From Candidatus Omnitrophota bacterium (lineage in GTDB: Bacteria > Omnitrophota > Omnitrophia > Omnitrophales > Aquincolibacteriaceae), in NCBI GenBank assembly GCA_049324575.1, contig JBMONI010000002.1, forward strand, positions 92,804 to 156,803: a DNA stretch of 64,000 bases. Direction: 5' to 3'. A model generated the notes under the pieces. That model saw only the letters and a list, made by a program, of their open reading frames with translations, had not been told where the DNA came from and did not search any database. Shown here piece by piece: positions 12,508 through 60,202 of this stretch. The first letter of the stretch is position 1. Every line of letters starts with the position of its first letter. Position numbers and translations under genes: made by a program.

Positions 12508-12534
12508 GCCGGCGCTATTTTCAAAAGCCCGGGC

Positions 12535-14227: not shown

Positions 14228-14400
14228 GTTCTGTTAGACGCTCTATGTCATAAAAACATCCGCTACGCCTGCGAGATTAGCTTGGGATTAGGACTGCGGA
14301 TTAGCCCCCGGCCTTGCGACCGTTCACCCCGGTTCAGGTTCTCCCGCTCCCGGTCACCCGGGATTTGGCGGCGTATCCTGTAAAAGATACGCGAACGCAA

Positions 14401-17888: not shown

Positions 17889-18848
17889 TCAGCGGACAAG
17901 GAATCCTTGCAGCCAATTGAGGAGATAGCCGGTCAGGATGATCGCCAGCGTCGTCACCGCGAAGAAGATCCCGATCAAGGGCAGCCGCATCGCCCGGCGC
18001 AGCATGACCGCTTCCGGCAGACTCAGCGCCGCGATCGCCATCATAAAAGCCAGCGCAGTCCCCAAGGGGATCCCCTTCTGGAACAACACCACCGCGATCG
18101 GCAGTATCGCCGCGCAGCTCCCGTACATCGGGACTCCCAGGAGCACGGCGATCGGGACGGAAAAGTAACCCGTGCGGGCGATGATTGCTTGCACCGCTTC
18201 TTCGGGAACGAGATTATGGATCAGGGAACCGAGCCCTACGCCCACGAGAACCCATAACCAGATCTTGTGGACGATCGAAAAAGCCTCTTCGAGGCCAAAC
18301 CGAAGGCGGTCACGGAGACCTCGAAACCCCGGTTCCTCTTCGTCCTCTTCCGCCGATGTAAAATCGCTGACCAGATACTTCTCGACCCGGAGTCGCTGAA
18401 GCAGGGCCCCTGAGGCCACCCCGATCAGGATCCCGCTCGCGATATAGGCCAAGGTGATCTTCCATCCGAAGAATCCGAGCATCAGGACTACGAGATATTC
18501 ATTGATCAGGGGGGAGGTGATCAAAAAAGCGAAATTCACGCCAATCGGAATACCGGCCTTGAGCAGCCCGATGAAGATCGGGATCGAAGAGCAGGAACAG
18601 AACGGCGTGACCGCCCCGAACAGGGCCGCGAACCCGTAGGAGGCCGCCGCGCGTTTTGATAAAAAATCGCGGAGGCGTCGGCGGGGAAGGTACGAACGCA
18701 AAAAACCGATCGCGGTGATCATCCCCACGAGGAGCAAGAGGATCTTCACGCTATCATAAATAAAGAAATCGAGAACCGCTCCCCAACGTGAATCGACCGG
18801 AAGCCTGAAGATCTCTTCCGTGATCCATGCCGAGATCATCCGCAGCAT
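17889..18848 (-). CDS. arsP: ArsP-family (COG0701) permease, putative organoarsenical/metalloid efflux permease
   Basis: Polytopic membrane protein with the TPFCSCSSIPI motif characteristic of ArsP; second GSCAAILP motif. Confidence 0.7.
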   Translation of the reverse strand: MLRMISAWITEEIFRLPVDSRWGAVLDFFIYDSVKILLLLVGMITAIGFLRSYLPRRRLRDFLSKRAAASYGFAALFGAVTPFCSCSSIPIFIGLLKAGIPIGVNFAFLITSPLINEYLVVLMLGFFGWKITLAYIASGILIGVASGALLQRLRVEKYLVSDFTSAEEDEEEPGFRGLRDRLRFGLEEAFSIVHKIWLWVLVGVGLGSLIHNLVPEEAVQAIIARTGYFSVPIAVLLGVPMYGSCAAILPIAVVLFQKGIPLGTALAFMMAIAALSLPEAVMLRRAMRLPLIGIFFAVTTLAIILTGYLLNWLQGFLVR

Positions 18849-25132: not shown

Positions 25133-25212
25133 AAAAAACTCCTGCCATTCTTTCGAATTTGCAGGAGTCATCAGCCCGAAGGCATTTAAAGGCGAACTCC
25201 ATCGCCTGGATA
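25133..25212 (-). promoter_or_regulatory. Fluoride riboswitch (crcB motif) with expression-platform intrinsic terminator; sigma-70-like -10 TATAAT at 25221-25226
   Basis: Minus-strand RNA reads CCAGGCGAUGGAGUUCGCCUUUAAAUGCCUUCGGGCUGAUGACUCCUGCAAAUUCGAAAGAAUGGCAGGAGUUUUUUCA; GGCGAUGGAGUUCGCC...CUGAUGACUCC is the conserved aptamer core, followed by a CUCCUGC/GCAGGAG + U6 terminator that competes for the aptamer 3' end. Confidence 0.88.
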
Positions 25213-25310
25213 CCGGCCGCGATTATACCCGGAATTTGCGAACTGGAAAACTTTTTTACTAGGAGAACAAGGACCCTGAGAAAGCCGAAAGCCCCGGATC
25301 TGGATTCAAA

Positions 25311-29255: not shown

Positions 29256-29270
29256 TTTCCGTTCTACCCT

Positions 29271-29316
29271 AAAAACCCCCCAGAGCCTTCAAGGCGCTGG
29301 GGGGTTTTTATTTTTC
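29271..29316. terminator. Bidirectional rho-independent terminator (CCCCCAGAGCC-ttcaa-GGCGCTGGGGGG, flanked by A5 and T-tract)
   Basis: Read directly between the RRM gene (+) and the cus operon end (-). Confidence 0.75.
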
Positions 29317-29340: not shown

Positions 29341-29646
29341 CTACCCGGCAGCCGGTTCGCCCTGCTCAGCCGCAACCTGGCTCGCCTCAAAAGCAGCGAT
29401 ATACTTCACAGGATCCTTCTCGAACACTCCTTTACACATAGGGCAGCAAAGACCATAACGCTTCCCTTCGTAGACGACAAAATCCTTTCCGTTCACTTCT
29501 CCACCCAGGACCGGGCATAGTTTGTTCCCCACATCCACGATCGCAGGCTCTTCCATGACCTCTTCGATAGCAAAAGCCAGGTTCCACGAGGCCGAAGTCA
29601 AAAACGCCAATGCCAGCATGAACACAACTATTACTTTCTTTTTCAT
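29341..29646 (-). CDS. Secreted YHS-domain metal-binding protein (likely periplasmic Cu/Ag-binding partner of the Cus pump)
   Basis: Signal peptide, then CPVLGGEVNGKDFVVYEGKRYGLCCPMCKGVFEKDPVKY fits the YHS pattern; AAGGAGG RBS favours ATG 29646. Confidence 0.65.
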   Translation of the reverse strand: MKKKVIVVFMLALAFLTSASWNLAFAIEEVMEEPAIVDVGNKLCPVLGGEVNGKDFVVYEGKRYGLCCPMCKGVFEKDPVKYIAAFEASQVAAEQGEPAAG

Positions 29647-29659
29647 AACCATCCTCCTT

Positions 29660-32600
29660 TTAGGGTGATATGTTCGAAATCCAGGATGCCTTACCCTCTT
29701 TCATTTCAAAACGCCATTTCCAAATGAAATAAATGACGGGGTAGACAAGCAATTCAAGTATAAACGAAGTGGCAAGCCCTCCGATCATCGGCGCCGCGAT
29801 ACGCTTCATGGCATCGGAACCTGCACCCGTTGCCCACATGATCGGCAAAAGCCCCATGAAGGTCGCCATCACGGTCATCATTTTGGGACGGACACGTTTG
29901 ACGGCGCCGTGCATGATCGCTTCTTCCAGGTCTCTTTGGGTGCGCATCTTTTTATTCCGGACCGCATCGTCATAGGCCAGATCGAGAAAAAGCAGCATAA
30001 AAACCCCTGTTTCTGCGTCAAGACCCATCAAAGCGATCATCCCCACCCAGACCGCGATCGAAATATGATAATCCAGAAGCCAGAGGAACCAGACCGCCCC
30101 GACCAGGGAAAAGGGAACCGCTAAGAGAACAATGCCTGTTTTAACCGCGGATTTAGTGTTGATATAAAGTAAGAGACAGATAAGAAAAAGCGTCAAAGGA
30201 ACCACGATCTTTAATCGTTCTTTCACGCGGATCATGTTTTCATATTGCCCGCTCCAGATCAGGGAATAACCTTGCGGAAGTTTGAGTTCGCGCGTTACGA
30301 TCTTTTTGGCTTCCGCGACATAGCTGCCGATATCCCGGCCGGCCATATCGACGTAAACATAACCCGCCAAGAGCCCGTTCTCATTGCGAATCATCGCAGG
30401 GCCGGGGACTTTTTTGATCTCCGCAAGCTGCGCGATCGGGATTTGTCTTTCCATCGGGCCTTTCACCGCAGAGCCCGTCCCCTCTGCTCGTGTAGGAACA
30501 AGAACGCGTTTGAGCTTTTCAAGGTCATCGCGGAATTCCCTCGAATACCTGACATTGACGGGATAGCGTTCACGCCCTTCTACCGTCGTCGTAATGTTTT
30601 CTCCGCCAATCGCAGACGTGATCACGCTTTGAACATCCTCCACCGAAAGTCCATAGCGCGCCATCGCTTCGCGATTGAGTTCAAAATCGAGAAAATACCC
30701 TCCCGCCACCCGTTCCGCATAGATGCTCCGGGTCCCGGGAATATCCTTCAGGATCATTTCTAAATGTGTCCCGATCTCTTCGATCTTTTTGATGTCCGCG
30801 CCCAAGACCTTGATCCCGATGGGGGTACGCACCCCGGTCGAAAGCATATCGATCCGGTTTTTGATCGGAAGAGTCCAAGCGTTGGTGGTTCCGGGGATCT
30901 GCAAAGCCTGATCCAATTTTTGCACCAGCTCCTCCCGAGAGAGATGCTGTGGCCAAATACGCTCGAGCGGCCACTGGAACATTTCCGGGACCCAGCGAGA
31001 ATACCACCGTTCCTTTTTTGTCCACTCCCTTTCCGGTTTCAGGAGAATAACGGTTTCTATCATGGAAAAAGGCGCCGGATCCGTGGAACTCTCCATCCGT
31101 CCGGCTTTCCCGAACACCCGTTCGACCTCCGGAAAAGCTTTGAGGATCTTATCCTGCTTTTGAAGAAGCCGCTGGGCCTCCGTCACCGAAATCCCGGGCA
31201 AAGTGGTCGGCATATAAAGAAGGTTCTCTTCCCATAGAGGCGGCATAAACTCGGAACCAAGCTTGAAATAGACAGGGATCGTACTCAACACAAGAAGCAG
31301 CGCTGCGAGGATCGTGGTCTTCCGGTGCTTCAGAACCCAACGGCAAACCGGCTCATAAATTCCGAACAGGACCCGACTAACCGGGTGTTTTTCTTCCGGA
31401 TAGTAAGTTCCGACCGCAATCCCTGTAACCGCTTTGGAAAGACCGGTTTCGATCTTTTTGGGAAAAAAAGGCAACTTCAGCCGGATCGGATCCATCCGGG
31501 CAAAAAGCATCCGCATCGCGGGATCCAGCGTCACCGCTAAAAGCGCCGCCATGACCATGGCCAGATTCTTTGCCCAGGCCAGCGGCCGGAATAAACGGCC
31601 CTCCTGGTCCATCAGCGTGAACACCGGCAAGAACGAAACCGCAATGACCAAGAGTGAAAAGAAAACCGCGGGTCCGACCTCTTTCAGCGCTTGAAGACGG
31701 ATCGCGTGGAAATCCCCCTGGCGCCCCCCTGCGATCCATTGCTCAAGGCGTTTGTAGGCATTTTCCACCTCTACGATAGCTCCATCCACCAAGACCCCGA
31801 TCGAGATCGCAATGCCGGAAAGTGACATGATATTCGAAGTGAGCTCCATCCGGTGAAGAAGAATAAAGGAGAGCAGGACCGAAATGGGGATCGTCACGAT
31901 CGGGACAATGGCGGAGGGGAAATGCCAGAGAAAAAGGAGAATCACAAAACTGACAATGATCATTTCTTCGATCAACTGATGTTTTAGCGTATCGATGGCA
32001 TGCAGGATCAGCTCTGAACGGTCATACGTCACAACCAATTCCACGCCGGCCGGAAACGAAGGTTTTAGCTCCTCGATCCTCGCTTTAACCCGCCGGATGA
32101 CATTTAAAGCATTTTCGCCCGAACGCATCACCACCGTGCCGGAAACCACATCGCCCTCACCATCCAGGTCCGCAAGCCCGCGGCGGATGTCGGGACCGAT
32201 CGCCACGGTGCCCAGATGCTTGATCAAGACCGGGGTTCCCTTCGGATCCGTCGTTACGACAATATTCTCAAGGTCCTGGACTGATCTTGCATAACCCCGC
32301 CCGCGGACCATATATTCTGCACCGCTGAATTCTAAAAGCCGGCCTCCGGTCTCCTGATTGCCGCTGCGGACCGCCGCTAAAACTTGGGTGATCGGGATGT
32401 CATAGGCCAGAAGCTTATTCGGATCGAGCGTGATCTGATATTGTTTGACAAAACCGCCGAGGGAAGCCACTTCCGCAACGCCGGGAACGCTTTGCAGGTA
32501 ATAACGGAGATACCAATCCTGGAAGCTTCTCAATTCCTGGAGACTGTGCTTGCCGGTCTTATCGACCAGGACATACTGGAAGACCCAGCCGACCCCGGTC

Positions 32601-33022
32601 GCATCCGGTCCAAGCTCGGTCTGCACTCCTTGTGGAAGCCGGGGAATGATCTTACTCAGATATTCGAGTGTCCGGCTTCTCGCCCAATAAAGGTCCGTTC
32701 CGTCCTTGAAGATCACATAGACATAGGAAAAGCCAAAATCCGAGAATCCGCGGACCGCTTTGACATGGGGCGCGCCGAGCATCGCGGTAACGATCGGATA
32801 AGTGACTTGGTCTTCAATGAGGTCAGGGCTGCGGTCCCACTTGGAGTAAATGATGACTTGGGTATCCGAAAGATCAGGAATCGCATCCAGCGGGATGTTC
32901 TGGATCGACCATACCGAAGCCACGACAGCGACCGCCGTGAGAACAAAAACAAGAAGCTTATTATGGGCCGAAAATTCGATGATCCGTTCAACCCAACCGC
33001 CCTGCCTCAATGGCGCGTCCAT
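29660..33022 (-). CDS. cusA: CusA/CzcA-family heavy-metal efflux RND transporter
   Basis: 1,120-aa 12-TM RND permease. Confidence 0.9.
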   Translation of the reverse strand: MDAPLRQGGWVERIIEFSAHNKLLVFVLTAVAVVASVWSIQNIPLDAIPDLSDTQVIIYSKWDRSPDLIEDQVTYPIVTAMLGAPHVKAVRGFSDFGFSYVYVIFKDGTDLYWARSRTLEYLSKIIPRLPQGVQTELGPDATGVGWVFQYVLVDKTGKHSLQELRSFQDWYLRYYLQSVPGVAEVASLGGFVKQYQITLDPNKLLAYDIPITQVLAAVRSGNQETGGRLLEFSGAEYMVRGRGYARSVQDLENIVVTTDPKGTPVLIKHLGTVAIGPDIRRGLADLDGEGDVVSGTVVMRSGENALNVIRRVKARIEELKPSFPAGVELVVTYDRSELILHAIDTLKHQLIEEMIIVSFVILLFLWHFPSAIVPIVTIPISVLLSFILLHRMELTSNIMSLSGIAISIGVLVDGAIVEVENAYKRLEQWIAGGRQGDFHAIRLQALKEVGPAVFFSLLVIAVSFLPVFTLMDQEGRLFRPLAWAKNLAMVMAALLAVTLDPAMRMLFARMDPIRLKLPFFPKKIETGLSKAVTGIAVGTYYPEEKHPVSRVLFGIYEPVCRWVLKHRKTTILAALLLVLSTIPVYFKLGSEFMPPLWEENLLYMPTTLPGISVTEAQRLLQKQDKILKAFPEVERVFGKAGRMESSTDPAPFSMIETVILLKPEREWTKKERWYSRWVPEMFQWPLERIWPQHLSREELVQKLDQALQIPGTTNAWTLPIKNRIDMLSTGVRTPIGIKVLGADIKKIEEIGTHLEMILKDIPGTRSIYAERVAGGYFLDFELNREAMARYGLSVEDVQSVITSAIGGENITTTVEGRERYPVNVRYSREFRDDLEKLKRVLVPTRAEGTGSAVKGPMERQIPIAQLAEIKKVPGPAMIRNENGLLAGYVYVDMAGRDIGSYVAEAKKIVTRELKLPQGYSLIWSGQYENMIRVKERLKIVVPLTLFLICLLLYINTKSAVKTGIVLLAVPFSLVGAVWFLWLLDYHISIAVWVGMIALMGLDAETGVFMLLFLDLAYDDAVRNKKMRTQRDLEEAIMHGAVKRVRPKMMTVMATFMGLLPIMWATGAGSDAMKRIAAPMIGGLATSFILELLVYPVIYFIWKWRFEMKEGKASWISNISP

Positions 33023-33028
33023 TCTTTC

Positions 33029-34315
33029 TCATCCTCCGTGCGCATGGCTGCTTGTGCCGCCCGCGTCTTCAAGCGCGGCTTTGAGCCGGCTTTCGGAATC
33101 GATCAGAAAATTACCGCTTGTAACAACGATCTCGCCTTCCTGAAGTCCACCCTGGATCTGATAAAAACCATCGGTTTTCGTTCCCAAGGCAACGGCGCGA
33201 GGTTCAAAAAGAGAACTTTCTTTCGCGACAAAAACAATGTTTTTTTCGCCGGTCATGAACACGGCCTCTTCGGGCACCGCCAAATGTTCGCCAAGGTCGA
33301 TCCTGAGCGAAACATTCACATACATCTCCGGCTTCAGCTCCCCCGCCGGGTTTTCGAGCTGGGCCCGCACCCGGATCGAGCGCGTCACGGGATCTACCAC
33401 GGGATCCAGCGAACGGATCGTCCCTTGAAATATCTTTTGAGAAATAGCAGGCACCTCCACTTCGACCGGGTCTCCGGCATGAACAAAAGGCATCTCATAT
33501 TCATAGATGGCCGCATAAAGCCAGACCTTGCCCCCCGCGTCGGAGTAAAGGAGCGAACGATCCGGCTTACCGGCCTCTTCGAGCTCCTGCACAAGGGCAT
33601 CGTTCAAACCCAGCAAGCGCAGTTTGATCCGGGCCGAATCCACAAGCTTTTCGGCTTGCTCTCGCATCTCAGGATCGGCGTTTTCCGCTCTTTGCAGAGC
33701 CCGGACCGCTTGCAAATATTCCTCTTCAGCCTGATAGAGTTCGGGATCGTAAGCGATCCTCCCGGAAACACGAAGGGTCTTTTCAAGCCTCTGTTCCTGT
33801 ACCGGGGCCATTTTGACACCGATGGCCTGCTGTTTTTCCGTCCCCAACCGGATCTTCGTATAACCCTCGGGGAAAGCATCTTGTACGATAACTCCCAGAT
33901 CTTCCATGCAATGAGGGCATTTGCCCATTCTCGCAAACTCCGGGGTCATGGCGATCATGCACTGCCCCATCTTGCATTTATGGAGAAGGCAGATCTCCCC
34001 CGGCTTCATGGCGACAAGCTGTTCGACCGTAAAGACCTTCGGCGATGTCTCCGGCGAACTTTCATGGCCGTTATGCCCTTCAGACGCTATCGACTCATCA
34101 GCAGAAGCTTCGCGTTTTACCAGCGACATGTTACAGATCGGGCATGTGCCCGGACGGTTCGAAGTATAATTGGGATGCATGGGGCAATAATAGAGTTCTT
34201 TGGAAGCTTGCATATCGGCCGGTGCTGCGGAGTGAAAGCGGACCCCCCAAAGAGTTCCCGCCGCAACGATCGCTGCGACCGCCAAGACCCATAATGCGCG
34301 GTTCATTTTGATCAT
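33029..34315 (-). CDS. cusB: CusB-like RND periplasmic adaptor with two N-terminal Cys/Met metal-binding motifs
   Basis: YYCPMHPNYTSNRPGTCPICNMSL and CLLHKCKMGQCM...CPHCMEDL N-terminal metal sites; MFP body. Confidence 0.85.
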   Translation of the reverse strand: MIKMNRALWVLAVAAIVAAGTLWGVRFHSAAPADMQASKELYYCPMHPNYTSNRPGTCPICNMSLVKREASADESIASEGHNGHESSPETSPKVFTVEQLVAMKPGEICLLHKCKMGQCMIAMTPEFARMGKCPHCMEDLGVIVQDAFPEGYTKIRLGTEKQQAIGVKMAPVQEQRLEKTLRVSGRIAYDPELYQAEEEYLQAVRALQRAENADPEMREQAEKLVDSARIKLRLLGLNDALVQELEEAGKPDRSLLYSDAGGKVWLYAAIYEYEMPFVHAGDPVEVEVPAISQKIFQGTIRSLDPVVDPVTRSIRVRAQLENPAGELKPEMYVNVSLRIDLGEHLAVPEEAVFMTGEKNIVFVAKESSLFEPRAVALGTKTDGFYQIQGGLQEGEIVVTSGNFLIDSESRLKAALEDAGGTSSHAHGG

Positions 34316-35643
34316 GGGAGCTTCTCCTTTTCCGCGTTTTTCAGATCAAGCCCGGCGGCCCAGGCAAGATCGGTGTATGCCTGCAAAGCCGTCGTATAAA
34401 AACGGATCTGAGAAAGTTTCGCATTAAGATAAATGCGTTCGCTATCGAGCAGATCCAAAAAATCGGTTTTCCCGGATTCATAGCCAGCTTGATCCGCAGA
34501 AAGCGCTAATTGAGCCTGCGGAACGATCGCAACGTCATAAAGATCCGCGATCTTGGAGGCGCTTTGAAAGCGGGAATACGAATCTTTGACCTCGAAGAAA
34601 GCTTGATTTTTCACAGCCAAAAGCTTGGCGCGTTCGGCCTCCTCCAATTTGGCGGCTTTCTGGATCTCCGGGATGATCCGGTTCTGCCAGATCGGAAGAT
34701 TCACTTTCAGCGGGAACATCCAGCTGTCCCGTCCGTCCATATCGGAGGGTTCCATCGTCGTCCCGGCGCCGACCCGTACATACTCAAACCCGACATTCAC
34801 ATCGGGGACATAGGCCAATTGCGCAAGACGTTTGGAATAATGAGCTTTGGAAACCATGGCTTCCGCTTCTTGGATCGCCGGCCGGTGAAGGACCGCAAGG
34901 TTCACGAGCTCTACCAGGGAATTCCCCAAAACCGGTTTGGGCGGAAGCGTTGCCTTCCCGAACGGCTGCATCGGGTCCCGGTCAAGGAGCGCATTGATCT
35001 GGGCCGTAACACTTTCCCTTTCTTGCTCCAGCCTATAAAGTTTTTCGAGGCTCATCGAAAATTCCGTCTGGGCCTTCGCGACATCGCGCTGAGATCCTTC
35101 CCGGCTTGAATAGCGGGCCTGCGCAGCCGCCTCGAATTTTTTAAGAAGTTCTTTGATTTCAGCAAGCGTATCCAGAGAGGCATCAATAAAATAAAGCTCA
35201 TAATAAAGTTTGCTGAGTTTGGCCGTAATGTCACGTTCGAACGCTTGGTAGCGGGCCCAAGCCGCCCTGGCCTCGGCTTTGGCTTCGTTCCTTTGCTCCC
35301 AGAGCTTAAGCGGAAAGGGAATGTCCTGAGCCACCATAAAACGGTTTTTCTGAGGCCCGACACGGGTCTCGGTCATTGAGCCCATAATGTCGTAGCCCCC
35401 TATTGGATCTGGAAGGGCCCACGAGGCCAGGATCTCCTTCTGAAAAGCCTCCCATCCAGCTTTCGCCGCAATAAGCTCTGGATTCCGTTGAAGGGCTTCT
35501 TGGAGGAGGACTTCCAGATCGAGGGAAGAAGAAGACAGAACCACCGCTCCTGTCTCCTCCCCCCTGCAAACAGGGGAAAGAAGGGAGAGGACCGTCAAAA
35601 TACTGAGCAGAACCCTGAGATGCTTTCCGCTAGAACCGCTCAT
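34312..35643 (-). CDS. cusC: TolC-family outer-membrane efflux protein
   Basis: Start trimmed to ATG 35643 (MSGSSGKHLRVLLSILTVLSLLSPVCRG signal); 4-nt overlap with cusB. Confidence 0.8.
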   Translation of the reverse strand: MSGSSGKHLRVLLSILTVLSLLSPVCRGEETGAVVLSSSSLDLEVLLQEALQRNPELIAAKAGWEAFQKEILASWALPDPIGGYDIMGSMTETRVGPQKNRFMVAQDIPFPLKLWEQRNEAKAEARAAWARYQAFERDITAKLSKLYYELYFIDASLDTLAEIKELLKKFEAAAQARYSSREGSQRDVAKAQTEFSMSLEKLYRLEQERESVTAQINALLDRDPMQPFGKATLPPKPVLGNSLVELVNLAVLHRPAIQEAEAMVSKAHYSKRLAQLAYVPDVNVGFEYVRVGAGTTMEPSDMDGRDSWMFPLKVNLPIWQNRIIPEIQKAAKLEEAERAKLLAVKNQAFFEVKDSYSRFQSASKIADLYDVAIVPQAQLALSADQAGYESGKTDFLDLLDSERIYLNAKLSQIRFYTTALQAYTDLAWAAGLDLKNAEKEKLP

Positions 35644-35699
35644 CCAAGCCGTCCTTTCCAGACCGGTAATTCCGGTCGCCATCGGCCGCTCTTCCGATC

Positions 35700-35978
35700 T
35701 TATTTTCTCAGGCTCTCGAAAAGACGGTAGATCTCGTTCAAGTGCTCCGTCTTCTTCGCCTGAGACCGCCCTTCGAACGCCTGCTTGGCGCAAGCGTTCA
35801 AATGATCCTTGAGGATCTTTGCTTCAACGGTTTTAAGCGCGCCGCGAATAGCCGCGATCGCGTTCAAGATATCGACGCAATACCGTCTCGTTTCGATCAT
35901 CCTCTGGATGCCGCGCACCTGTCCGGCAATCCGGCGAAGGGCGACCAACTGATCGTCATGTGGGGTTCCTTTCTTCAT
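35700..35978 (-). CDS. csoR: CsoR/RcnR-family metal-sensing transcriptional repressor
   Basis: MKKGTPHDDQLVALRRIAGQVRGIQRMIETRRYCVDILNAIAAIRGAL... with the C-H-C copper-ligand pattern; start at ATG 35978. Confidence 0.85.
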   Translation of the reverse strand: MKKGTPHDDQLVALRRIAGQVRGIQRMIETRRYCVDILNAIAAIRGALKTVEAKILKDHLNACAKQAFEGRSQAKKTEHLNEIYRLFESLRK

Positions 35979-36007
35979 GGTCTTTTCCTCCTGGCAGAAC
36001 AAATATA

Positions 36008-36028
36008 ACATACCCCATGGGGGTATGT
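36008..36028. promoter_or_regulatory. CsoR-type operator: perfect palindrome ACATACCCC-atg-GGGGTATGT immediately upstream of csoR
   Basis: Read directly; matches the GC-rich ATACCC...GGGTAT CsoR box known from copZA operators. Confidence 0.7.
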
Positions 36029-36050
36029 CAAGAAAAACCTCGGGCGAACT

Positions 36051-36374
36051 TCAGGCTTCGAGAAGGCTAAAGACCTGCCGGTAATAGTCTGCCAGATTAC
36101 GCAAGGACCGCATAAAAAGGAGGGAAAGCGCCCAGGTCACGGCGAGGATGAGGAGCGTCCAAAGCCATTTCATAGGACGGGAATATTTCGGGTGGAACCA
36201 GAGGAGCGGAAGCATCAGGGGCCCGACCATGAAAAAGCCGATCACGAGAGTGGAAAGTTTGAAATACCAGGGAGCGCCGACAGAGGTCTTTCGCCCTTCC
36301 AGGAATTCACCGCAATGCTTGCATTTGATGGCTTCGTCCTGGATCTCTTCCGCGCAAAACGGACATTTTTTCAT
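36051..36374 (-). CDS. Zinc-ribbon (CPFC...CKHC) two-TM membrane protein, hypothetical
   Basis: MKKCPFCAEEIQDEAIKCKHCGEF... followed by two hydrophobic helices. Confidence 0.5.
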   Translation of the reverse strand: MKKCPFCAEEIQDEAIKCKHCGEFLEGRKTSVGAPWYFKLSTLVIGFFMVGPLMLPLLWFHPKYSRPMKWLWTLLILAVTWALSLLFMRSLRNLADYYRQVFSLLEA

Positions 36375-36423: not shown

Positions 36424-37065
36424 TTAACTGACACGGATAAAAGCGGAAGCGTCGGTCTTGCAGATCGCACAGGTCCCCGAAGAGGCCGCTTCCTTGATAT
36501 TCCCGCAGACGGGGCACACGAAAAAATTCTTGGTCCCCTTTTTCCAGGCTTCCTCATGATCAAGGATCTTGCGGCAAAGGTCCGCATGAACGTTCTCGGC
36601 CTGCATCGCGTCCTTGAAAGAATCGACAGCCTCTTCGGCCCCCGCCGCCTCGGCGGTCTCGAGGAAATCCGGATACATGGCCGTGGCTCCGTCCATGCGC
36701 TCGTTGAGCATCGTTTCGAGGTTGTCGCGGGTACTCTCGACCTTCGCCGGATCGATCACCGCCGCCGGCTCGCCGCCGAGCTGGCGGATCACTTCCGCGT
36801 GCCGTTCAAAATGGACCTGGGCCGCACGCGCGATTGCGCGGAAAAAGCCCGCGACCGCTCCAAAGCCTTCCTGGTCAGCCTTCCCGGCGAACGCCATCGC
36901 GTTCACATGGGCATTGCTCTCCGCGCGGAAAGCGGTCATGAGAAGCTCAAGCGGGCCGTTCTCCTGGTTCGTTTCCGCGGCCACGCTCATGCCCGACAAG
37001 GTTATCCCCATCAAACCTGCCAGCAAGAATGCCCCCAGTCGCTTGCGCGCTCGGACCCTGTTCAC
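36424..37065 (-). CDS. Rubrerythrin with apparent N-terminal signal peptide and C-terminal rubredoxin-like CPVCG...CAICK
   Basis: Ferritin-like E...E..H motifs (AFRAESNAHVNAMAFAGKADQEGF...HFERHAE); GTG start 37065 has a good RBS (GGGAAGGA-8nt) and overlaps the stop of the upstream giant gene (GTGA). Confidence 0.75.
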   Translation of the reverse strand: MNRVRARKRLGAFLLAGLMGITLSGMSVAAETNQENGPLELLMTAFRAESNAHVNAMAFAGKADQEGFGAVAGFFRAIARAAQVHFERHAEVIRQLGGEPAAVIDPAKVESTRDNLETMLNERMDGATAMYPDFLETAEAAGAEEAVDSFKDAMQAENVHADLCRKILDHEEAWKKGTKNFFVCPVCGNIKEAASSGTCAICKTDASAFIRVS

Positions 37066-40000
37066 GCTTTTTTTCCTTCCCGCAAAGAGACCTCAGCACC
37101 GATCGGGCTCTTGCTCACATCCCGGCGGACCCGGCCCACCTTCAAACGGCCGCGAGGCTCTCCGAGATCCTTGGGAAGGACCAGCTGATTCCCCGCCAGG
37201 GAAGCCCCGACCACGCCTTCGATCGCCTGACGAAGCATCCATCCCGCCGCCCCGGTATAACCGTGCCATATCATGCGGCCCTGGTCGTAATTGGTCAAAA
37301 GGTCTGCCGCCTGTTTGTTCGGCTGGCCCCCGTAGATCTCGATCTCTCCGGCCGTCACATGCGGAATGGAGGAAATTTTCAACCATAGCCGAAGCGCGGT
37401 TTCGCGATAGGAAGCCGCTTTGGAAGCATTCCCCCGCGAGGCATAATGTTCGGCCAGGACCCTGGCGGCTTTCACAAGCCATTGGACCCCGTGACAGTAC
37501 ATGCCGTTCTCGCGGACCCCTTCCGGATATTTACTGCTTCGGCCCAGATAAGGCTTAGTATCCTCGCGAAGCGACGGCCATCCGAGCAGGATGGCGTTCG
37601 GTTTTTCAAGGACCTGAAGCGCCGTATTGAAAACGATCTCATTGCGCTCGGGATTGATCCCCGCCATGACCGCCCACGCCGCGGTCAGGGCGTCAATCTC
37701 CCAGATCCCGCTCCCCTTGATACCGATCTCGGTGCCGTCATCATGGATCGCCCGAAGATACCGGTCGGTCCGCCATGTTCTTTCGAGCGCTTCGGCAAGC
37801 GCCTTCATCTTTTTCTCGTAGTGCTCCCGCCGGGCGAGCCCGTCCCGCTTCTCGATGATCCCAAGCATTTCCTTGAGGATATAGTAAAGGAAGAAACCGA
37901 GCCAAATACTTTCCCCCTTCCCCGCGCTCCCGATCTCATCCAGCCCGTCGTTCCAGTCCCCGGTCCCGATCAGCGGGATGCCGTTACGCCCCATCCTTTT
38001 TTCGAGTACGACGTCGATCGATTTCATGCAATGGCGATAGACCGTATCGGCCCGCGTGGAGCGCTGGTAAAAATGTCCCCAGCCATGTTTGTTCTTCGGC
38101 AGAGGCGCGAACGGGAATTCCGAGGTCACATAAGAGGTCATTTCGTCGAGAATCGTTTCATCCCCGGCAAGGCGAAGATATTCCGCCACTCCCCAGGAGA
38201 GCCACAGCAGATTGTCCGAGGCATGGGAACGGCAGGAAAAAGAAGTGCGTCCGTCGGTCAGCGTGAAGAACCAGTGGAAGACATCCCCTTCCACGAATTG
38301 ATGCGAGGCATGGAGCAGGATCTGTTTACGAGCCAGCGCCGGATCGACCCAGATCATATTGACGGTATCCTGAAGCTGGTCCCGGAAACCGAACGCGCCG
38401 CTGGTCTGATAAAAGCCCCGGCGCGCCCAGATCCGTTCCGCAAGGGCCTGATATTTGAGCCAGTATTGGTATGCATCGAACTCCGGAAGGTCGGTCTTGA
38501 TCTCAAGGGTGTTCATGAGCCGGAGCCACCAGTCGCGCGTTTCTTCCAGGCTCTTTCGGGCGGTATCGAGATTTTTGTATTTCTGGACGATCCGGATCGC
38601 CTCCGGATGCGTGTCGGTCTGTCCCAAGACGATCGCAATGGTTTTCTCGCCCCTGGCCGGGATCTCCACCGTCCCAAGGAATCCCGCGACCGGCTTGTCA
38701 TCGGTCCGATGCCCGAGGTCCGGCTCCCCGGTTTCCACCAAAAAGGGGTGCGTCACCCCGCGGCCCCGGCCGAAAAAGGCCCCGCGTTTCGTGACCCAGC
38801 GGTCGGCCGGAATCGACATGGACGCAAAAGCCCACCCGGTGCGGAAAAGATTGCGTGGATTCTCGAAAAGAAGCGCATCGAGGACCTTGTCATGTTTTTG
38901 GCACAAAGCTCCGGCCCGCTCAGGCTGGAACGCGAGCGCGATCTGAAAATAAGGCGCGATCCGCATCCGCTTGAGCCTGTCGGAATCGTTCTTCACGGTG
39001 AGAAGATAAACCCCGGTCGGCTCGTCCGGAGGGACAAAAACGGTCAACTGGGTCGAGACCGAGCCGGAACTCATCCGGAACACCGCGGTCCCGTCCACGC
39101 TGAATTCGGATTCATAGCGCGCCCGCAGATCATTCAAGGGATGATAGGTCGGTGAGAACCATTCTTTTTGATCCGGATCGTACAGATAGATCGCTTCCGC
39201 CGGGACTTCTTTCGTCACCGTATCGGGCCAATCCGGCGTCACGCGGTTCTGCTGAGAATTGCCGTTGCAGGAAGTATGCAGGCCCCGGTTCGTGACCATG
39301 ACCGAATGCACGGCATTGGAAAGTGCGTGATCATAAGGACGGGTCGTGAACGGGGTCCGGACGATAAGCTTCCGCCCTTCGGCCGTATATTCCGAATAAG
39401 GCTGCGGGGTCCCGGGCAGGATCTCGCCGTGGCCGATCAAAGGCTGTCTTTTCTTACCGGGGACCGCGGGGGACGCGGCGGCCTTCGGGGCCAGATGCTT
39501 CTCGATCATCTCGAGCGCCGCCTTCTTGTTCTTCGCCCAGCCGATCATCAGCCGCATCGATTTTGGGGCCGCGGGCGCAAGCGCCATGTCCACCACAAGA
39601 CAACCGATCGGATCGAAGGTCGGATAAGGCGCCATGTCTCGCGCTTCAAGAAAACCCATGGTCTCAAGGATCCGGGGTGTCCAAAGACTCCGGGCGCGGC
39701 CGATAAAATCCATGCGGGAGGTATGGAACCCCTCGGGCGCCGCCTCCGAAGCCAGGATCCCCATGGACTTCGTGTTCTTCTGCCAGGAAAGCACGGCATT
39801 GGCCTCGCTCACATATTCCATTTCCGGATAAAGCCGAGCATACTGCGTATGGAAGCGATCATCCAGAGGCCGGTTCAACACCCACTCCAGATACGGGACG
39901 ATCTTGAGCGCGCGGGGCTTCGAACTCAAGTTCTCGAGCAAAATCGTCCACACCTCCGCCGTCCCGTTATGCGGAACGAGCCCGATCTCGATCGTGGCCC

Positions 40001-43000
40001 GCACCCCGTGATTCTCGTTCACAAGCTTCAGGCGATTTCCGTCCTTGGAGATCCTGGACGCCGGGAACCGGTCGCGCGGAAAATTCCCGAAGATTGGCCA
40101 GGCGCGCGCCGCGCTCCCCGGTTTTTCCGCCATATCCACCACAAAAAGCGCGCGGCCGCAGGGCTCGAGATTATCGTAGCAGCGGCGGCTCACATCATAG
40201 CTTTTTTGCACCACTTCGCTGTACCCTTCGCCGCCCTCGAGGACCACCGTCTTGTATTCATGATGTCCGATCTCGAAACTTTTCTCGCGGCGGCTTTCCC
40301 CGCGGCGGACCATCGCGCGGAAACAAAAGGAAATGAGCGTCGCCAACAAGACCGCCCCGAGACCGACCCCCAAGAGCTGAAGGACCGGAAGCGCCCGCAG
40401 GGACGCGACAAGTCCCGCGCCCTTTGCGTTCTGGATCGCAAGCGAGGTCCCCCACGCATAATCCCATTCCGCGCCGCGCGGGATATAAAAGGGAATGAGA
40501 AGCGGCGCCCATGTGGTGAACCGCTTGACCCCTTCGGGAATGCACCGTTGCGCAGCGGCCGGACCGATGAACTTCGCGGTCTTCTCGTCCAGCTTATCCA
40601 TGCCGATAAAGCTCAGGTTCACGAGCGTCGCGACCCGCAGCCCCATGTGGTCCATCCAGATCAGGACACGAAAGAAATCAAAGGCCAGCACGTAGACGAA
40701 AACCGTAAGGCTCCAGTCCCGGAAAGCCTCCGGAGACAGGGTCAGCTTATTCCAGATCGCGACCAAGGTGCGGATCGCGCCATCCTGGTTATACCAGGTC
40801 GGATCGGGCATCATGCGCAGGAACGTAAAAATAATAGGCGACATCCAGAGTCCCCAACGGAGGACGTAAAGCATGTGCTGGATGAGCTCCATGAAACCGG
40901 CTTTCGAGAAAAAGAATTTGATCGGCGCGGTATCCTTCTGGAAGAACGCCTCCATGAAGACCTTATTGACAGCGAAAAGCCAGGCCGCGATCGACCAGTT
41001 AATGACCCCCGCCAGGGATTCGGTGAAAAGGAGCTTGGCCCCGCCGGAGTAACTGCCGAGGTCGATCCGCCCCCATTTGTTGACCAACGGATAGGTGATG
41101 TAGTCGACCGGAGTAAATCCGGCGCTCGTATAAAGTTTGAATTTTTCGATAACCACGGGGACCTGAAGCGAATCCAAATAGAAAGCGACCGCGCTTCCGA
41201 CGAAAGCGCCCAGGGCCGCGTCCACCAGATAAAGCCGCCACGACTGGATATTCCCCTGGCCTTTGAACGTATAGAGGGCGTCCCGCAGCAAACTGACCCC
41301 CAGCGAGGCCGCCAGACCGACCATGCAGCCGAAATGGATCCGGCTCGGCATCGCTTCCTGGAAAAGCCCGCGGCTGATCATGAAAGCCAGTCCAAAGCCG
41401 ACCACCGCTCCGCGCACGTACAGGATCGGATTCCGGTAACTGTAATGAGCCCGCTCAAAAAAAGGAAGACTGCCGTCGAACGATTCGATGATGGTCTTGA
41501 TGAGCGGGAAAACAAGCGCTCCCGCCATAAGCCCCACGACCAGAGGGAAAGAAGCCATGATCGAGCTCACCGCCGAATGGTTGAGCGCCAGATACAAAAG
41601 ATAAAGGATCGCAAGCAGGATCCCGCTATAGGCCATCCCCTTGCGCATGCCGGTATAGGAATGCTGGGAAACCGTTTCCGAACTCGGAGCTTTCCGGTGC
41701 ACCCCGTCCACAATAGCGCCCGTGATCAGATAAACTTCGCCCCAAAGCCCCGCATAAGAAAGGATCGTCGCAAGGATCGACACCATGCCGCGAAAGAGCG
41801 CCGGCAAAGCGCCGACCCAGGCGGTGGAACCCCAATCCGCGATCTCAGGCGCGAGCGCCACGGCGACCGAAACAAAAAGCATGGAAAGATGCGCTTTGCG
41901 GACGTTCAGGACCTTCCCCTGGGTCGCGAGACTGATCCCGCTGATCACGACTTCGTTAAAAGCAAAAACGATCACGGCACGGCCCAAGATCCCCAAAACG
42001 ACCGGCCACGCCGCAAGTACGCTCAGCGTCAAGGCGCCGGCCAGGTCCTGCAAAAGCGCCGCGTTCTCGAGAAGAAGGATCCAGCCTAAAAGATAAGGAG
42101 TAAGCACGATCAGTCCGCCCGCGATCGGCCGCAGGTGCTTTCCGGAGTTGGCCATCGACAGGACGTTCACGGACTGGTAGATCACAAAGGTCAGCGCTGC
42201 GAGATGGTTCGTTAAAAGGAAGAGCTGCGACCATGTCGCCGGGGCCTGAAGGATCTCCTGCCGGCTCGAACCCGCGGCCAAAAGTCCCGTCAAAAGGATG
42301 TCCTGGAAAAGCTCGGACGGGGTCAGCGTTTTCCCGGCAAGCACCCGCTTGCAAACGGCAGAAAGCGCGGCTCCGAGCAAGGCGATCCCGAGGAAATGAA
42401 AATTGGTATCGAGCGTGCTCCCCTTGCCGAGCCCGCAGATCATGAAACCGATCGCAAGGATCGTGACCGCAACGGCCCCGTAAAAAAGATCCTTTTTGAG
42501 ATGCCAGAGCCAGGACCTCGGAAACGCCGAAAGGTCCTCGGCCGGGACCGCAGAAGGAGCAGCGGACATCCGCCGGCCCCGGAAGATCCGCTTTAAGAAC
42601 GCGGCGACGCCCGCCATCAGGAGGCTCAGCAGGATGACGAGAGAGACCTTGATCAGCGTAAAATTCTTCTCGAGCGGCGTCAAACGTCCGAAGCGGAGAT
42701 CGAAGAAAAGTTTTCCCGTGACGGCTTCGCTGATCTCAAGCGGGCTCACGCCGATCGGATTGATGGCCATCGGTCCTATCGCCATCGGACTGACGACATA
42801 AACGACCTCCGTCAGGTTCCCGATCGTATTCCAGTTCACCGCCTCAAGGAAATAATTCCATCCGGGCTGCAGCCGTAGCGGAATGCTCTGCATCCCGCGG
42901 GTCCCCTTGATCTCGGCTTTGACGGTCACCTGCTGGATCTGATCCCCATGGGGGACCTTGACGCCGATCTTTACGGCGTCCGCGACCTCGGCCCCGTAAT

Positions 43001-44330
43001 CCTCGGGATACGATTTAGTCCAGATCCCCACCGTCGATCCTTCGGGCAGCGTGTAACTGAACTCCCAAAGGTCCCTTTTCAAGCTTTCATCGAAAACGCC
43101 GGTCACACTCCCCTGCGAAGGCCCGATGTTGAAAACCCCTTTTTCCCCCGCATCGAGCATCCCGAAAACGGCCGTGAAGAGGTCCGGAGCGGAAGTTTTC
43201 GGAACCGGGCTTGCCCTTTTGACGAAATCAAAAGCCAAATAAAGGGTGCCATGGGCCTTTTCGATCCCCTCCCGCGCCGTAATGCGAAGCCGGAGTTCTT
43301 TGAGGTCCCCGAGAGAAGCTCCGTCCAGGAATTCCTGGATCGAATTCCATCCCCGTTTGAGTTCAAGCGGAAAGTTTTTTTCGCTTCGGGTCCCTTTCAA
43401 AAGGACTTCCGCAGTGATCTGTTCGACCTGTCCCGCTTCCGGCACCCGGATCCCCATCCGGAGGGTGTCCATCGCTCCGGACTCGATCCCCGCCGGGAAA
43501 TCCTTGGCCCTCATTTCCACTGAGCCCTCATCCTCGATCGAGTAATCGAACTCCAGAACGTCTTTTCCCGCAACCTCATCGAAGGAAGGCGTAAGCGTCC
43601 CCTTGGCATCCCCGTCCTTTTCGACCTCGCGCTTACCTGCGCTCATCAGCGTCATGGACGACACCCCCGCGGCCGCAGGAGTCGGTTTCGGAGGCGGCGG
43701 TGCAGCAACCCGAGGAGAACTGACCGTGGTTTTGACGGACGGGGTCTGCGGAGGTAACATCGAGATGAATTCCGCGGTAAAAGCAACGGATCCTTCGGCG
43801 CTCATTCCTTGAGCGGCCGGTGAAACGGAAAATTCGACTGCTTCCAGCGTCCCCACCTTCGCCCAATCCAAGGATTCCTGGAAAGCGCTCCATCCCTCAC
43901 GAAGCCGCACGGGGATCTGCTGGGTCCCGGCCGATCCCTTGATCTCCAAGGTTAGGGAGATCTGCTTTGCGGTCTCGGCACTTGCCGCTTTGGCCCCGAT
44001 CCTTACCGCAGAAACGGCCGCAGCGCTCAGGAAGGCGGGGAACGATCTCGCCCAAAAAACCACTTTCGCTCCCGCCGGAATGGAGTAATCGAGCTCGAGA
44101 ACGTCTTTGCCGCTCGCGCTGTCATAAGTCGGCGTCGAAACCGCCTTCAGCACCCCATCCTTCGTGAGGCCACGCTCCTTGGCGTCCAAAAGCGTCGCGA
44201 TCGGGGCTGAGGCATCGGTTTCGGCGGCGCTCGAGACCCCGGAAGGAAAACAAGCATTTAAGAAAAAAACGGAAAGGGAAAAGAGGAGCGATCTTGAGAA
44301 CAAAAAAGCCTGCTGTCTTCTCGAGAACAT
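37062..44330 (-). CDS. Giant 2,422-aa membrane protein: signal peptide, three tandem roughly 170-aa repeats (exported), roughly 20-helix membrane domain, C-terminal GH94-like glycoside phosphorylase / cyclic-glucan-synthase-C-terminal-like domain
   Basis: Three repeat motifs DVLELDYSIPAGAKVVFWARSFPA / DVLEFDYSIEDEGSVEMRAKDFPA / DLWEFSYTLPEGSTVGIWTKSYPE; long hydrophobic block; C-terminal motifs QTSGAFGFRDQLQDT and IGTGDWNDGLDEIG typical of GH94. Confidence 0.75.
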   Translation of the reverse strand: MFSRRQQAFLFSRSLLFSLSVFFLNACFPSGVSSAAETDASAPIATLLDAKERGLTKDGVLKAVSTPTYDSASGKDVLELDYSIPAGAKVVFWARSFPAFLSAAAVSAVRIGAKAASAETAKQISLTLEIKGSAGTQQIPVRLREGWSAFQESLDWAKVGTLEAVEFSVSPAAQGMSAEGSVAFTAEFISMLPPQTPSVKTTVSSPRVAAPPPPKPTPAAAGVSSMTLMSAGKREVEKDGDAKGTLTPSFDEVAGKDVLEFDYSIEDEGSVEMRAKDFPAGIESGAMDTLRMGIRVPEAGQVEQITAEVLLKGTRSEKNFPLELKRGWNSIQEFLDGASLGDLKELRLRITAREGIEKAHGTLYLAFDFVKRASPVPKTSAPDLFTAVFGMLDAGEKGVFNIGPSQGSVTGVFDESLKRDLWEFSYTLPEGSTVGIWTKSYPEDYGAEVADAVKIGVKVPHGDQIQQVTVKAEIKGTRGMQSIPLRLQPGWNYFLEAVNWNTIGNLTEVVYVVSPMAIGPMAINPIGVSPLEISEAVTGKLFFDLRFGRLTPLEKNFTLIKVSLVILLSLLMAGVAAFLKRIFRGRRMSAAPSAVPAEDLSAFPRSWLWHLKKDLFYGAVAVTILAIGFMICGLGKGSTLDTNFHFLGIALLGAALSAVCKRVLAGKTLTPSELFQDILLTGLLAAGSSRQEILQAPATWSQLFLLTNHLAALTFVIYQSVNVLSMANSGKHLRPIAGGLIVLTPYLLGWILLLENAALLQDLAGALTLSVLAAWPVVLGILGRAVIVFAFNEVVISGISLATQGKVLNVRKAHLSMLFVSVAVALAPEIADWGSTAWVGALPALFRGMVSILATILSYAGLWGEVYLITGAIVDGVHRKAPSSETVSQHSYTGMRKGMAYSGILLAILYLLYLALNHSAVSSIMASFPLVVGLMAGALVFPLIKTIIESFDGSLPFFERAHYSYRNPILYVRGAVVGFGLAFMISRGLFQEAMPSRIHFGCMVGLAASLGVSLLRDALYTFKGQGNIQSWRLYLVDAALGAFVGSAVAFYLDSLQVPVVIEKFKLYTSAGFTPVDYITYPLVNKWGRIDLGSYSGGAKLLFTESLAGVINWSIAAWLFAVNKVFMEAFFQKDTAPIKFFFSKAGFMELIQHMLYVLRWGLWMSPIIFTFLRMMPDPTWYNQDGAIRTLVAIWNKLTLSPEAFRDWSLTVFVYVLAFDFFRVLIWMDHMGLRVATLVNLSFIGMDKLDEKTAKFIGPAAAQRCIPEGVKRFTTWAPLLIPFYIPRGAEWDYAWGTSLAIQNAKGAGLVASLRALPVLQLLGVGLGAVLLATLISFCFRAMVRRGESRREKSFEIGHHEYKTVVLEGGEGYSEVVQKSYDVSRRCYDNLEPCGRALFVVDMAEKPGSAARAWPIFGNFPRDRFPASRISKDGNRLKLVNENHGVRATIEIGLVPHNGTAEVWTILLENLSSKPRALKIVPYLEWVLNRPLDDRFHTQYARLYPEMEYVSEANAVLSWQKNTKSMGILASEAAPEGFHTSRMDFIGRARSLWTPRILETMGFLEARDMAPYPTFDPIGCLVVDMALAPAAPKSMRLMIGWAKNKKAALEMIEKHLAPKAAASPAVPGKKRQPLIGHGEILPGTPQPYSEYTAEGRKLIVRTPFTTRPYDHALSNAVHSVMVTNRGLHTSCNGNSQQNRVTPDWPDTVTKEVPAEAIYLYDPDQKEWFSPTYHPLNDLRARYESEFSVDGTAVFRMSSGSVSTQLTVFVPPDEPTGVYLLTVKNDSDRLKRMRIAPYFQIALAFQPERAGALCQKHDKVLDALLFENPRNLFRTGWAFASMSIPADRWVTKRGAFFGRGRGVTHPFLVETGEPDLGHRTDDKPVAGFLGTVEIPARGEKTIAIVLGQTDTHPEAIRIVQKYKNLDTARKSLEETRDWWLRLMNTLEIKTDLPEFDAYQYWLKYQALAERIWARRGFYQTSGAFGFRDQLQDTVNMIWVDPALARKQILLHASHQFVEGDVFHWFFTLTDGRTSFSCRSHASDNLLWLSWGVAEYLRLAGDETILDEMTSYVTSEFPFAPLPKNKHGWGHFYQRSTRADTVYRHCMKSIDVVLEKRMGRNGIPLIGTGDWNDGLDEIGSAGKGESIWLGFFLYYILKEMLGIIEKRDGLARREHYEKKMKALAEALERTWRTDRYLRAIHDDGTEIGIKGSGIWEIDALTAAWAVMAGINPERNEIVFNTALQVLEKPNAILLGWPSLREDTKPYLGRSSKYPEGVRENGMYCHGVQWLVKAARVLAEHYASRGNASKAASYRETALRLWLKISSIPHVTAGEIEIYGGQPNKQAADLLTNYDQGRMIWHGYTGAAGWMLRQAIEGVVGASLAGNQLVLPKDLGEPRGRLKVGRVRRDVSKSPIGAEVSLREGKKA

Positions 44331-60028: not shown

Positions 60029-60070
60029 AAAATAAAAAACCGCCGTCCGGTTATTGCAACCAGATGGCGG
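60029..60070 (-). terminator. Rho-independent terminator downstream of pckG (CCGCCATCTGG...CCGGACGGCGG + U-tract on the minus strand)
   Basis: Read directly. Confidence 0.7.
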
Positions 60071-60202
60071 CCCGACCATCAGCTTACTACTTCCTCCGGA
60101 AGCACCCCCCTTTCCGGACCTCTTATTCGCTCATATTTCCCAAAGAGCGTGAAGGAATTCTAGCCACGGAAAATAGCCCCGTCAAGGGAGAAATAACCGC
60201 TT

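Follow-up and report, generated by a model that had tools for sequence, protein, structure and literature searches.

What is known of copper export across the Gram-negative envelope comes almost wholly from the Escherichia coli system CusCFBA/CusRS, in which an outer-membrane factor (OMF), a periplasmic adaptor or membrane fusion protein (MFP) and a resistance-nodulation-division (RND) transporter form a tripartite pump. The copper repressor CsoR has been described together with another cargo: in the csoR-copZA systems of Mycobacterium tuberculosis, Bacillus subtilis, Streptomyces lividans and Geobacillus, it governs a P-type ATPase and the chaperone CopZ. In the reviews and articles consulted, CsoR is placed over genes of the copA/copZ type and Cus pumps are placed under CusRS or CopRS. 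No published CsoR-Cus operon, and no YHS protein arranged with the periplasm or an RND pump, was found among the titles and abstracts searched; as the coverage of the literature was incomplete, this is only absence of evidence. Cytoplasmic copper or gold sensors that switch an envelope-spanning RND exporter are known from Salmonella (GolS-GesABC) and Pseudomonas aeruginosa (CueR-MexPQ-OpmE). In the present study, we analyzed a 64,000-nucleotide stretch of DNA from a Candidatus Omnitrophota bacterium (hereafter, the window), in which five genes on the minus strand (29341-36031, counted with the promoter and operator in front of them) place csoR at the head of a cus operon that ends with a gene for a secreted YHS-like protein and a terminator hairpin. 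Unlike GolS and CueR, which are MerR-family activators, the sensor encoded here is a CsoR-family repressor that would act by promoter occlusion. The features are as follows.

36026-36031, minus strand: -35 hexamer TTGACA of a sigma-70 promoter match
36008-36028, unstranded: CsoR-type operator, inverted repeat ACATACCCC-CAT-GGGGTATGT, filling the promoter spacer
36002-36007, minus strand: -10 hexamer TATATT of the sigma-70 promoter match
35700-35978, minus strand: csoR, CsoR/RcnR-family repressor of 92 amino acids (PF02583)
34312-35682, minus strand: cusC-like gene, OMF (PF02321)
33029-34315, minus strand: cusB-like gene, MFP (HlyD_D23 and HMBD, PF19335)
29660-33022, minus strand: cusA, heavy-metal RND pump of the monovalent (Cu/Ag) type (TIGR00914)
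29341-29652, minus strand: secreted YHS/TRASH-like gene, 103 amino acids (PF04945 match below the cut-off)
29270-29310, unstranded: bidirectional terminator hairpin with 20-nucleotide arms, 95% complementary, and AAAAA/TTTTT on both sides

Each component belongs to a known family; the combination itself has not previously been studied, and it is not categorically new. The sequence-only reading that preceded this work had reported csoR, cusC, cusB and cusA as co-directional, and all five genes lie on the minus strand. By every sequence criterion they form a single operon. The gaps between genes range from a 4-nucleotide overlap to 17 nucleotides (up to 56 nucleotides if cusC starts at ATG 35643), the YHS gene starts 7-13 nucleotides past cusA, and no promoter or terminator better than chance was found inside the five-gene unit. 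The start of cusC is uncertain, at ATG 35682 or ATG 35643, and the listed start TTG 35793 overlaps csoR; the stop codon of cusC overlaps the start of cusB (ATGA). The hairpin at the end of the operon is common to the YHS gene and a convergent gene for a protein with an RNA recognition motif, and a separate scan called part of it terminator-like. The GC content of the operon is 0.52-0.55, whereas its two flanks have 0.51-0.57 and 0.58-0.61, and as a signal of a genomic island this is not decisive.

The promoter in front of csoR matches the sigma-70 consensus at 11 of 12 positions, with an 18-nucleotide spacer and TG before the -10 hexamer, and the operator lies between the two hexamers. Its arms (36008-36016 and 36020-36028) are 9 nucleotides each and 100% complementary. 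A perfect CsoR palindrome had been claimed for 36008-36028; the perfection of the arms stands, although with the 3-nucleotide spacer the element is a 9+3+9 inverted repeat and not a continuous palindrome of 21 nucleotides. The start of csoR had been placed at ATG 36011, which falls inside the operator, and was corrected to ATG 35978, with GGAGG 7 nucleotides upstream. The operator core ATACCCC-N3-GGGGTAT occurs in a single copy in the window and had an exact match in none of 100 dinucleotide shuffles; with up to two mismatches allowed, 0.11 matches are expected. The consensus operator of streptomycete CsoR is ATATACCCCTNAGGGGTATAT, and operators of copper CsoRs follow a rule in which a TAC-X9-GTA dyad bridges G-tracts, the swap of any dyad base having abolished binding (PMC3902906). 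The operator of the window fits this published rule as TAC-CCCCATGGG-GTA. To judge from the sequences compared, the strongest evidence for the operator is its conservation across loci. In an alignment of 16 loci from different organisms, the flanks of which cannot be aligned, TTGACATACCCCC..GGGGTATG.TA is kept and CATA...G.GTAT is invariant. Furthermore, the combined promoter-operator string TTGACATACCC-N5-GGGTAT occurs exactly once per locus in 11 related loci, always before the first gene of the module, and the TTGACA directly 5' of the operator is conserved in related loci.

One observation speaks against this interpretation of the repeat: its hairpin was also called terminator-like, having 11 pairs, a 3-nucleotide loop and the T-rich tail TATTTGTTCT, and it lies 23 nucleotides past the stop codon of an upstream gene for a zinc-ribbon membrane protein. 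The inverted repeat could then be merely the intrinsic terminator of that gene, without any operator function. However, the same sequence, fused to TTGACA, is kept before csoR in loci where the upstream genes and flanks differ completely, the regions 5' of csoR in related loci being unlike the upstream region of the window, and it matches a biochemically defined class of operator. We rejected the terminator-only explanation because it leaves unexplained the conservation of the repeat across loci jointly with the -35 hexamer, and we regard it as hardly conceivable. A dual role of the repeat, as operator and terminator, is possible.

The csoR product matches PF02583 with 84.9 bits (cut-off, 22.8; E 5e-24) over profile positions 4-74 of 78, and its closest solved relatives are the CsoR proteins of Geobacillus (4m1p, 5.9e-15) and S. 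lividans (4adz). Residues Cys34, His59 and Cys63 (in the motifs RYC and H-x3-C) align with the Cu(I) ligands of these two proteins, and the x-Cys-His-Cys fingerprint known from M. tuberculosis (C36/H61/C65) is present. The type of the operator, its location within the promoter, the fact that 16 loci share it and the Cys-His-Cys ligands make it most likely that CsoR represses the operon, and we hold the part of the mechanism that concerns repressor, operator and operon with considerable confidence. CsoR tetramers bound to the TAC-N9-GTA G-tract site would block RNA polymerase as long as cytoplasmic Cu(I) is low; with Cu(I) bound to Cys34, His59 and Cys63, CsoR would leave the DNA, and the five genes, csoR included, would be expressed. 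The window resembles the csoR-copZA systems, which have a repressor of the same family with the same ligands, an operator of the same kind overlapping the promoter, and autoregulation with csoR as the first gene. It differs from them in the cargo, which here is a pump spanning the outer membrane and a periplasmic protein. It also differs from the CusRS-controlled system of E. coli, as no two-component CusRS gene stands beside the operon and the switch is a cytoplasmic repressor; the adjacent upstream genes on the same strand, for the zinc-ribbon membrane protein and a rubrerythrin, encode neither a sensor kinase nor a response regulator. The description of the sensor as "Gram-positive-type" in the sequence-only reading was a misnomer. 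CsoR is functional in Bradyrhizobium and Pseudomonas putida (PMC5057107, PMC11978298), and csoR precedes related cusCBA operons in metagenome-assembled genomes (MAGs) labelled Omnitrophota, Planctomycetota and Bdellovibrio.

Members of the CsoR/RcnR family differ in function, and the matches of the window CsoR to the NCBIfam models RicR, FrmR and RcnR are all below their thresholds. The signal sensed might be something other than copper, for instance nickel or cobalt (as for InrS/RcnR), persulfide (as for CstR) or formaldehyde (as for FrmR), with another substrate exported by the pump. However, the ligand fingerprint is that of the copper sensors, the extra His of the nickel sensor InrS corresponds to Gln20 in the window CsoR, and CstR presumably lacks the His that the window CsoR has; the nearest solved relatives are copper CsoRs and the operator is of the copper-CsoR type. 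The pump points the same way, since CusA has the Cu/Ag methionine triad and scores twice as high against E. coli CusA (1016 bits) as against the zinc pump ZneA (472 bits). Sensing of a non-copper signal is therefore very improbable in our estimation.

CusA exceeds the cut-off of TIGR00914 (1076 versus 701 bits). In an alignment to the E. coli protein (3k07_A, chain numbering +8), the residues matching M573, M623 and M672, which form the Cu(I)/Ag(I) site, and the proton-relay residue D405 are conserved, as are the segments LLYMP, FSMIE and RIDMLS. From these comparisons, the pump is of the CusA type and very probably specific for Cu/Ag. Two differences from E. coli CusA were noted. Of the three transmembrane methionine positions that were checked, M391 is conserved, and M403 is replaced by Leu and M410 by Glu; we take these three, with others, to belong to the transmembrane methionine pairs that serve cytoplasmic uptake in E. 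coli CusA. In addition, a Trp-rich insertion of about 24 residues (RWYSRWVPEMFQWPLERIWP; amino acids ~669-695) lies near the residue aligned with M623; it is kept in most of 80 related CusA proteins and missing from about a dozen. The co-encoded OMF and MFP subunits were confirmed, their genes overlapping or nearly abutting. The OMF contains two repeats of PF02321 OEP (1.3e-42), matches to the TolC/NodT subfamilies are below their cut-offs, and no relative of solved structure was found for it at 1e-5.

The MFP matches HlyD_D23 (2.7e-31), has E. coli CusB as its closest solved relative (3.2e-23), and carries at amino acids 42-67 a heavy-metal-binding domain (HMBD; PF19335, E 8.3e-13). This domain aligns, residue by residue, with the segment WYDPM49YPNTRFDKPGKSPFM64DM66DLV of E. 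coli CusB: M46, C61 and M63 in the window correspond to M49, M64 and M66, and C44, H47 and C58 are additional. By this alignment, the window CusB keeps a homologue of the site at which E. coli CusB accepts Cu(I) from CusF, in a predicted Cys/His/Met chemistry in place of the three methionines. Read in the other direction, the alignment suggests that the three-Met site of E. coli CusB is a methionine-substituted HMBD. Two N-terminal metal sites had been read in the window CusB. The first is this HMBD; the second, a Cys/Met/His-rich patch at amino acids 107-140 with the pattern C-x2-H...G-x-C-P-x-C, fits a regular expression for the domain, but scores -0.2 bits against the HMBD profile and was not counted as a domain.

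The last gene of the operon encodes a protein that is assigned to the secreted YHS/TRASH-like proteins, as a distinct "CPV...CCxxC" subfamily. The YHS assignment was not refuted by the scan with PF04945, in which all 26 aligned relatives match at E<=1e-3 (best, 4.9e-9); the window sequence itself is marginal (E 2e-6, 28.1 bits, gathering score 30.3) and covers profile positions 18-44 of 47. N43, C46-P47, C69-C70 and C73 are invariant in the family, as is the CPV motif. The spacing C46-x22-C69-x3-C73 fits the TRASH signature, which we take to be C-x19-22-C-x3-C, and adds to it the vicinal invariant C70. A Sec-type signal peptide ends at AFA|IEE, and signal peptides are found in all aligned members of the family, many of which carry Met/Glu-rich tails. 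In the NCBI annotation, the protein starts at 29646 and has 101 amino acids instead of 103. The model of the protein is a small beta-hairpin with a helix (treble-clef-like), a fold common to the YHS domain of phenol hydroxylase PhN and ribosomal protein L24e; the YHS-like C-terminal domain of PhN is the closest to it in fold and also its sole solved relative by sequence. Neither the fold nor the ligands are those of CusF, which presumably is an OB-fold protein with a His-Met-Met(-Trp) Cu(I) site. The YHS product is therefore not a CusF homologue, and any equivalence between them would be purely functional.

The kinship with PhN bears on what the cysteines may do. The homologous cysteines of PhN presumably bind structural zinc, and therefore the cluster of the YHS protein need not be a copper-transfer site. 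With the TRASH fold shared by L24e as well, it can be proposed that the four cysteines hold structural zinc, or form periplasmic disulfides, and that the protein serves some purpose outside metal trafficking, such as that of an assembly factor or adaptor. However, the gene is found consistently within copper modules (with the CsoR operator, the Cus pump, HMBD proteins and, in locus L015, a P-type ATPase), the additional invariant vicinal pair C69-C70 and the invariant CPV are not needed for a zinc ribbon, and many members have the Met/Glu-rich tails described above. We consider such a role improbable. Copper binding by the YHS protein seems rather likely.

To see how far the arrangement extends, the genomes were scanned with CusA, and 80 related loci (65-87% identity) were collected from MAGs labelled Omnitrophota, Planctomycetota, Elusimicrobiota, Acidobacteriota, Bdellovibrionota and others. 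The order csoR-OMF-MFP(HMBD)-RND-YHS recurs in L001, L003, L016, L081-L083, L085 and L089, of which L081-L083, L085 and L089 are independent metagenome contigs. The sequence-only reading had called the combination unusual. This is true in relation to model organisms; as the arrangement appears to recur in many environmental genomes, it is no one-off and not rare in nature. Of the loci, 69 extend far enough upstream to be judged, and in 14 of these csoR lies directly upstream of the cusA module. No regulator family is dominant in the loci without csoR, which have a few pairs of extracytoplasmic function sigma and anti-sigma factors, BlaR1-like proteins, one winged helix-turn-helix protein and one response regulator. 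Next to the cusA module, 28 of the 80 loci have a gene for a small secreted YHS-like protein, usually right after cusA; it lies between cusC and cusB, the position of cusF in E. coli, in L044, L052 and L076, and in L058 no other gene separates it from the operator. These YHS genes were called with a fixed hidden Markov model of the core domain; an iterative search was dropped, as it drifted into the MFP family and P-type ATPases, evidently through fused YHS-like domains. In three loci (L081 3999-4613, plus strand; also L082 and L083), an extra gene for a protein of 204 amino acids, without a Pfam match, is located between cusB and cusA, and it is absent from the window.

It had been proposed that the YHS protein occupies the slot of CusF. 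A secreted YHS gene without any CusF-like gene was indeed found, although it follows cusA and does not lie between cusC and cusB. Neither the window nor any of the 80 loci yielded a CusF-like sequence in searches of limited sensitivity with phmmer and tblastn, for which an E. coli CusF sequence served as the query; the window operon is also packed too tightly for a further gene. A YHS protein "instead of CusF" is plausible. It is complicated by the linkage of YHS genes to another gene, for a permease of the ArsP_1 family (PF03773), which stands right after the YHS gene in many relatives (L081-L083, L087-L090 and L001, at 11734-12720) and is its most constant neighbour.

The explanation of the whole operon toward which we lean, and which we consider rather likely, is a Cu(I) pump operon switched by CsoR, with the YHS protein passing Cu(I) to CusB. 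After derepression, CusC, CusB and CusA would assemble into an envelope-spanning pump. Cu(I), and probably Ag(I), would enter it at the three-Met site on the periplasmic side of CusA and be expelled across the outer membrane. The YHS protein, exported by means of its Sec signal peptide, would bind soft metal with its invariant cysteine cluster; most likely it would hold periplasmic Cu(I) and hand it on to the N-terminal HMBD of CusB, either feeding or shielding the pump. Such a relay would be thiolate-based and would replace the all-methionine relay of E. coli. The gene identities, the ligand residues, the type, position and conservation of the operator, the packing of the operon and its recurrence are established by sequence and comparison; we infer from them the Cu(I)-dependent derepression, the binding of metal by the YHS protein and the hand-over to CusB. 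The last step is the weakest, and on the comparisons presented here a direct hand-over from YHS to CusB is a tentative proposal.

Several observations weigh against this last part of the explanation. The window YHS protein falls 2.2 bits under the Pfam gathering score. An HMBD-bearing CusB is near-universal in the 80 loci, with or without YHS, and therefore there is no specific co-occurrence of YHS with the HMBD; the association of YHS with csoR is also weak (8 of 14 csoR loci versus 20 of 66 others; Fisher p 0.07). Searches for the YHS-like domain family returned 7137 cluster representatives at E<=1e-3, and at E<=1e-10 the number was 1701. Many of the proteins consist of 2-9 domains in tandem, with signal peptides in 5 of 5 representatives inspected, and arrays of this kind resemble a metal sponge more than they do a chaperone. 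In one lineage, moreover, a syntenic site flanked by tsaD and a glycosyltransferase gene exists in three states: csoR-cusCBA-YHS-ArsP_1 (L081-L083, L089); a pump-less csoR-X-(tiny secreted Cys-rich peptide)-YHS-ArsP_1 (L090, L086, P0002 contig); and YHS-ArsP_1 only, with neither csoR nor the operator (L087, L088). The persistence of the YHS-ArsP_1 pair without the pump means that in some organisms YHS functions independently of the pump, and, as the pair is found without both cusCBA and csoR, YHS is not simply a stand-in for CusF.

An alternative possibility that takes these facts into account keeps the copper export under CsoR and sees in the YHS protein either an independent buffer of periplasmic Cu(I) (a thiolate sponge) or a partner for a permease of the ArsP_1 type; in either case it would merely share the regulon. 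Besides the pump-less and csoR-less states and the tandem arrays, which reach 9 domains, L001, which of all relatives is nearest to the window, agrees with this alternative in having ArsP_1 directly behind YHS, and the extra secreted Cys-rich peptide beside YHS in L090 and L086 suggests a theme of sequestration. However, in the window the YHS gene follows cusA closely and is succeeded by the terminator, at the place where L001 has ArsP_1; no ArsP_1 gene stands at the end of the operon, a distant paralogue being located at 17889-18848 (minus strand). In addition, the adjacency of YHS-like genes to cusA modules in 28 of 80 loci, several of them between cusC and cusB, speaks against it. A buffer or permease partner is possible, but on balance rather unlikely.

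The peptide of the pump-less module is an observation in its own right. It is encoded at 4594-4726 (plus strand) in L090, and also in L086, between csoR-X and the YHS gene; it is tiny and secreted (MKK...AFA|GKQCQCKPCKCNPCECSKK), with six Cys among 19 mature residues, and has a hairpin of its own. It could be a periplasmic metallothionein-like peptide.

The proposed relay can be compared with other accessory proteins of copper resistance. The archaeal TRASH-domain protein CopM of Sulfolobus (copTMA/copMA) is reportedly a small single-domain protein in a copper-resistance cluster, for which a role as a copper carrier has been proposed. It is cytoplasmic and works with a P-type ATPase, whereas the window YHS protein has a cleavable signal peptide and accompanies a periplasmic RND pump. 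The CopM of Synechocystis is reportedly periplasmic and copper-binding. The CopRS-CopBAC-CopM system combines a copper RND pump with this non-CusF accessory protein (PMC4182526). Synechocystis CopM is not a YHS protein, and its system has a two-component regulator. The nearest relative of the pump remains E. coli CusCFBA, with which the window shares the tripartite OMF-MFP-RND architecture, the Met triad and D405 of CusA, and the homologous N-terminal metal site of CusB. It differs from the latter system in the Cys/His/Met HMBD in place of the three-Met site of CusB, in the substitutions and the insertion in CusA, and in having, without a detected CusF, a secreted YHS protein encoded after cusA.

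The operon and its relatives point to a second widespread design of envelope copper export, with CsoR in place of the two-component sensor, a Cys/His site in CusB, and a secreted YHS/TRASH protein in place of CusF. If the YHS protein traffics Cu(I), a function would be given to a large secreted family, the 7137 representatives counted above, and the alignment of the HMBD onto M49, M64 and M66 of CusB would explain the origin of the methionine site in E. coli. A bolder proposal, which we regard as speculative and at present unlikely, is that the secreted "CPV...CCxxC" YHS proteins make up a novel class of metallochaperones for Cu(I)/Ag(I) in the periplasm, which take the place of CusF in many uncultivated, mostly anaerobic lineages and pass metal to the Cys/His HMBD of CusB. 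If this were true, they would form with CsoR a complete thiolate-based Cus pathway with a cytoplasmic switch, an alternative to the methionine-only, CusRS-controlled design of E. coli. Apart from this, the operator and repressor pair is a potential copper-inducible switch for use in diderm bacteria.

Other features of the window were also recorded. Upstream of csoR, on the minus strand, the zinc-ribbon membrane protein is DUF983-like (36051-36374), and the rubrerythrin (36424-37065) has an apparent N-terminal signal or anchor. At 37062-44330 (minus strand) lies a gene for a giant protein of 2422 amino acids, with a C-terminal GH94 module (cellobiose/cyclic-glucan phosphorylase-like) and a long multi-pass membrane region. 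Three matches to Rfam families were above the gathering score, all on the minus strand: a fluoride riboswitch at 25155-25215 (55.7 bits), a c-di-AMP riboswitch at 14252-14380 (54.9 bits) and an nhaA-I RNA at 60062-60121 (39.6 bits).

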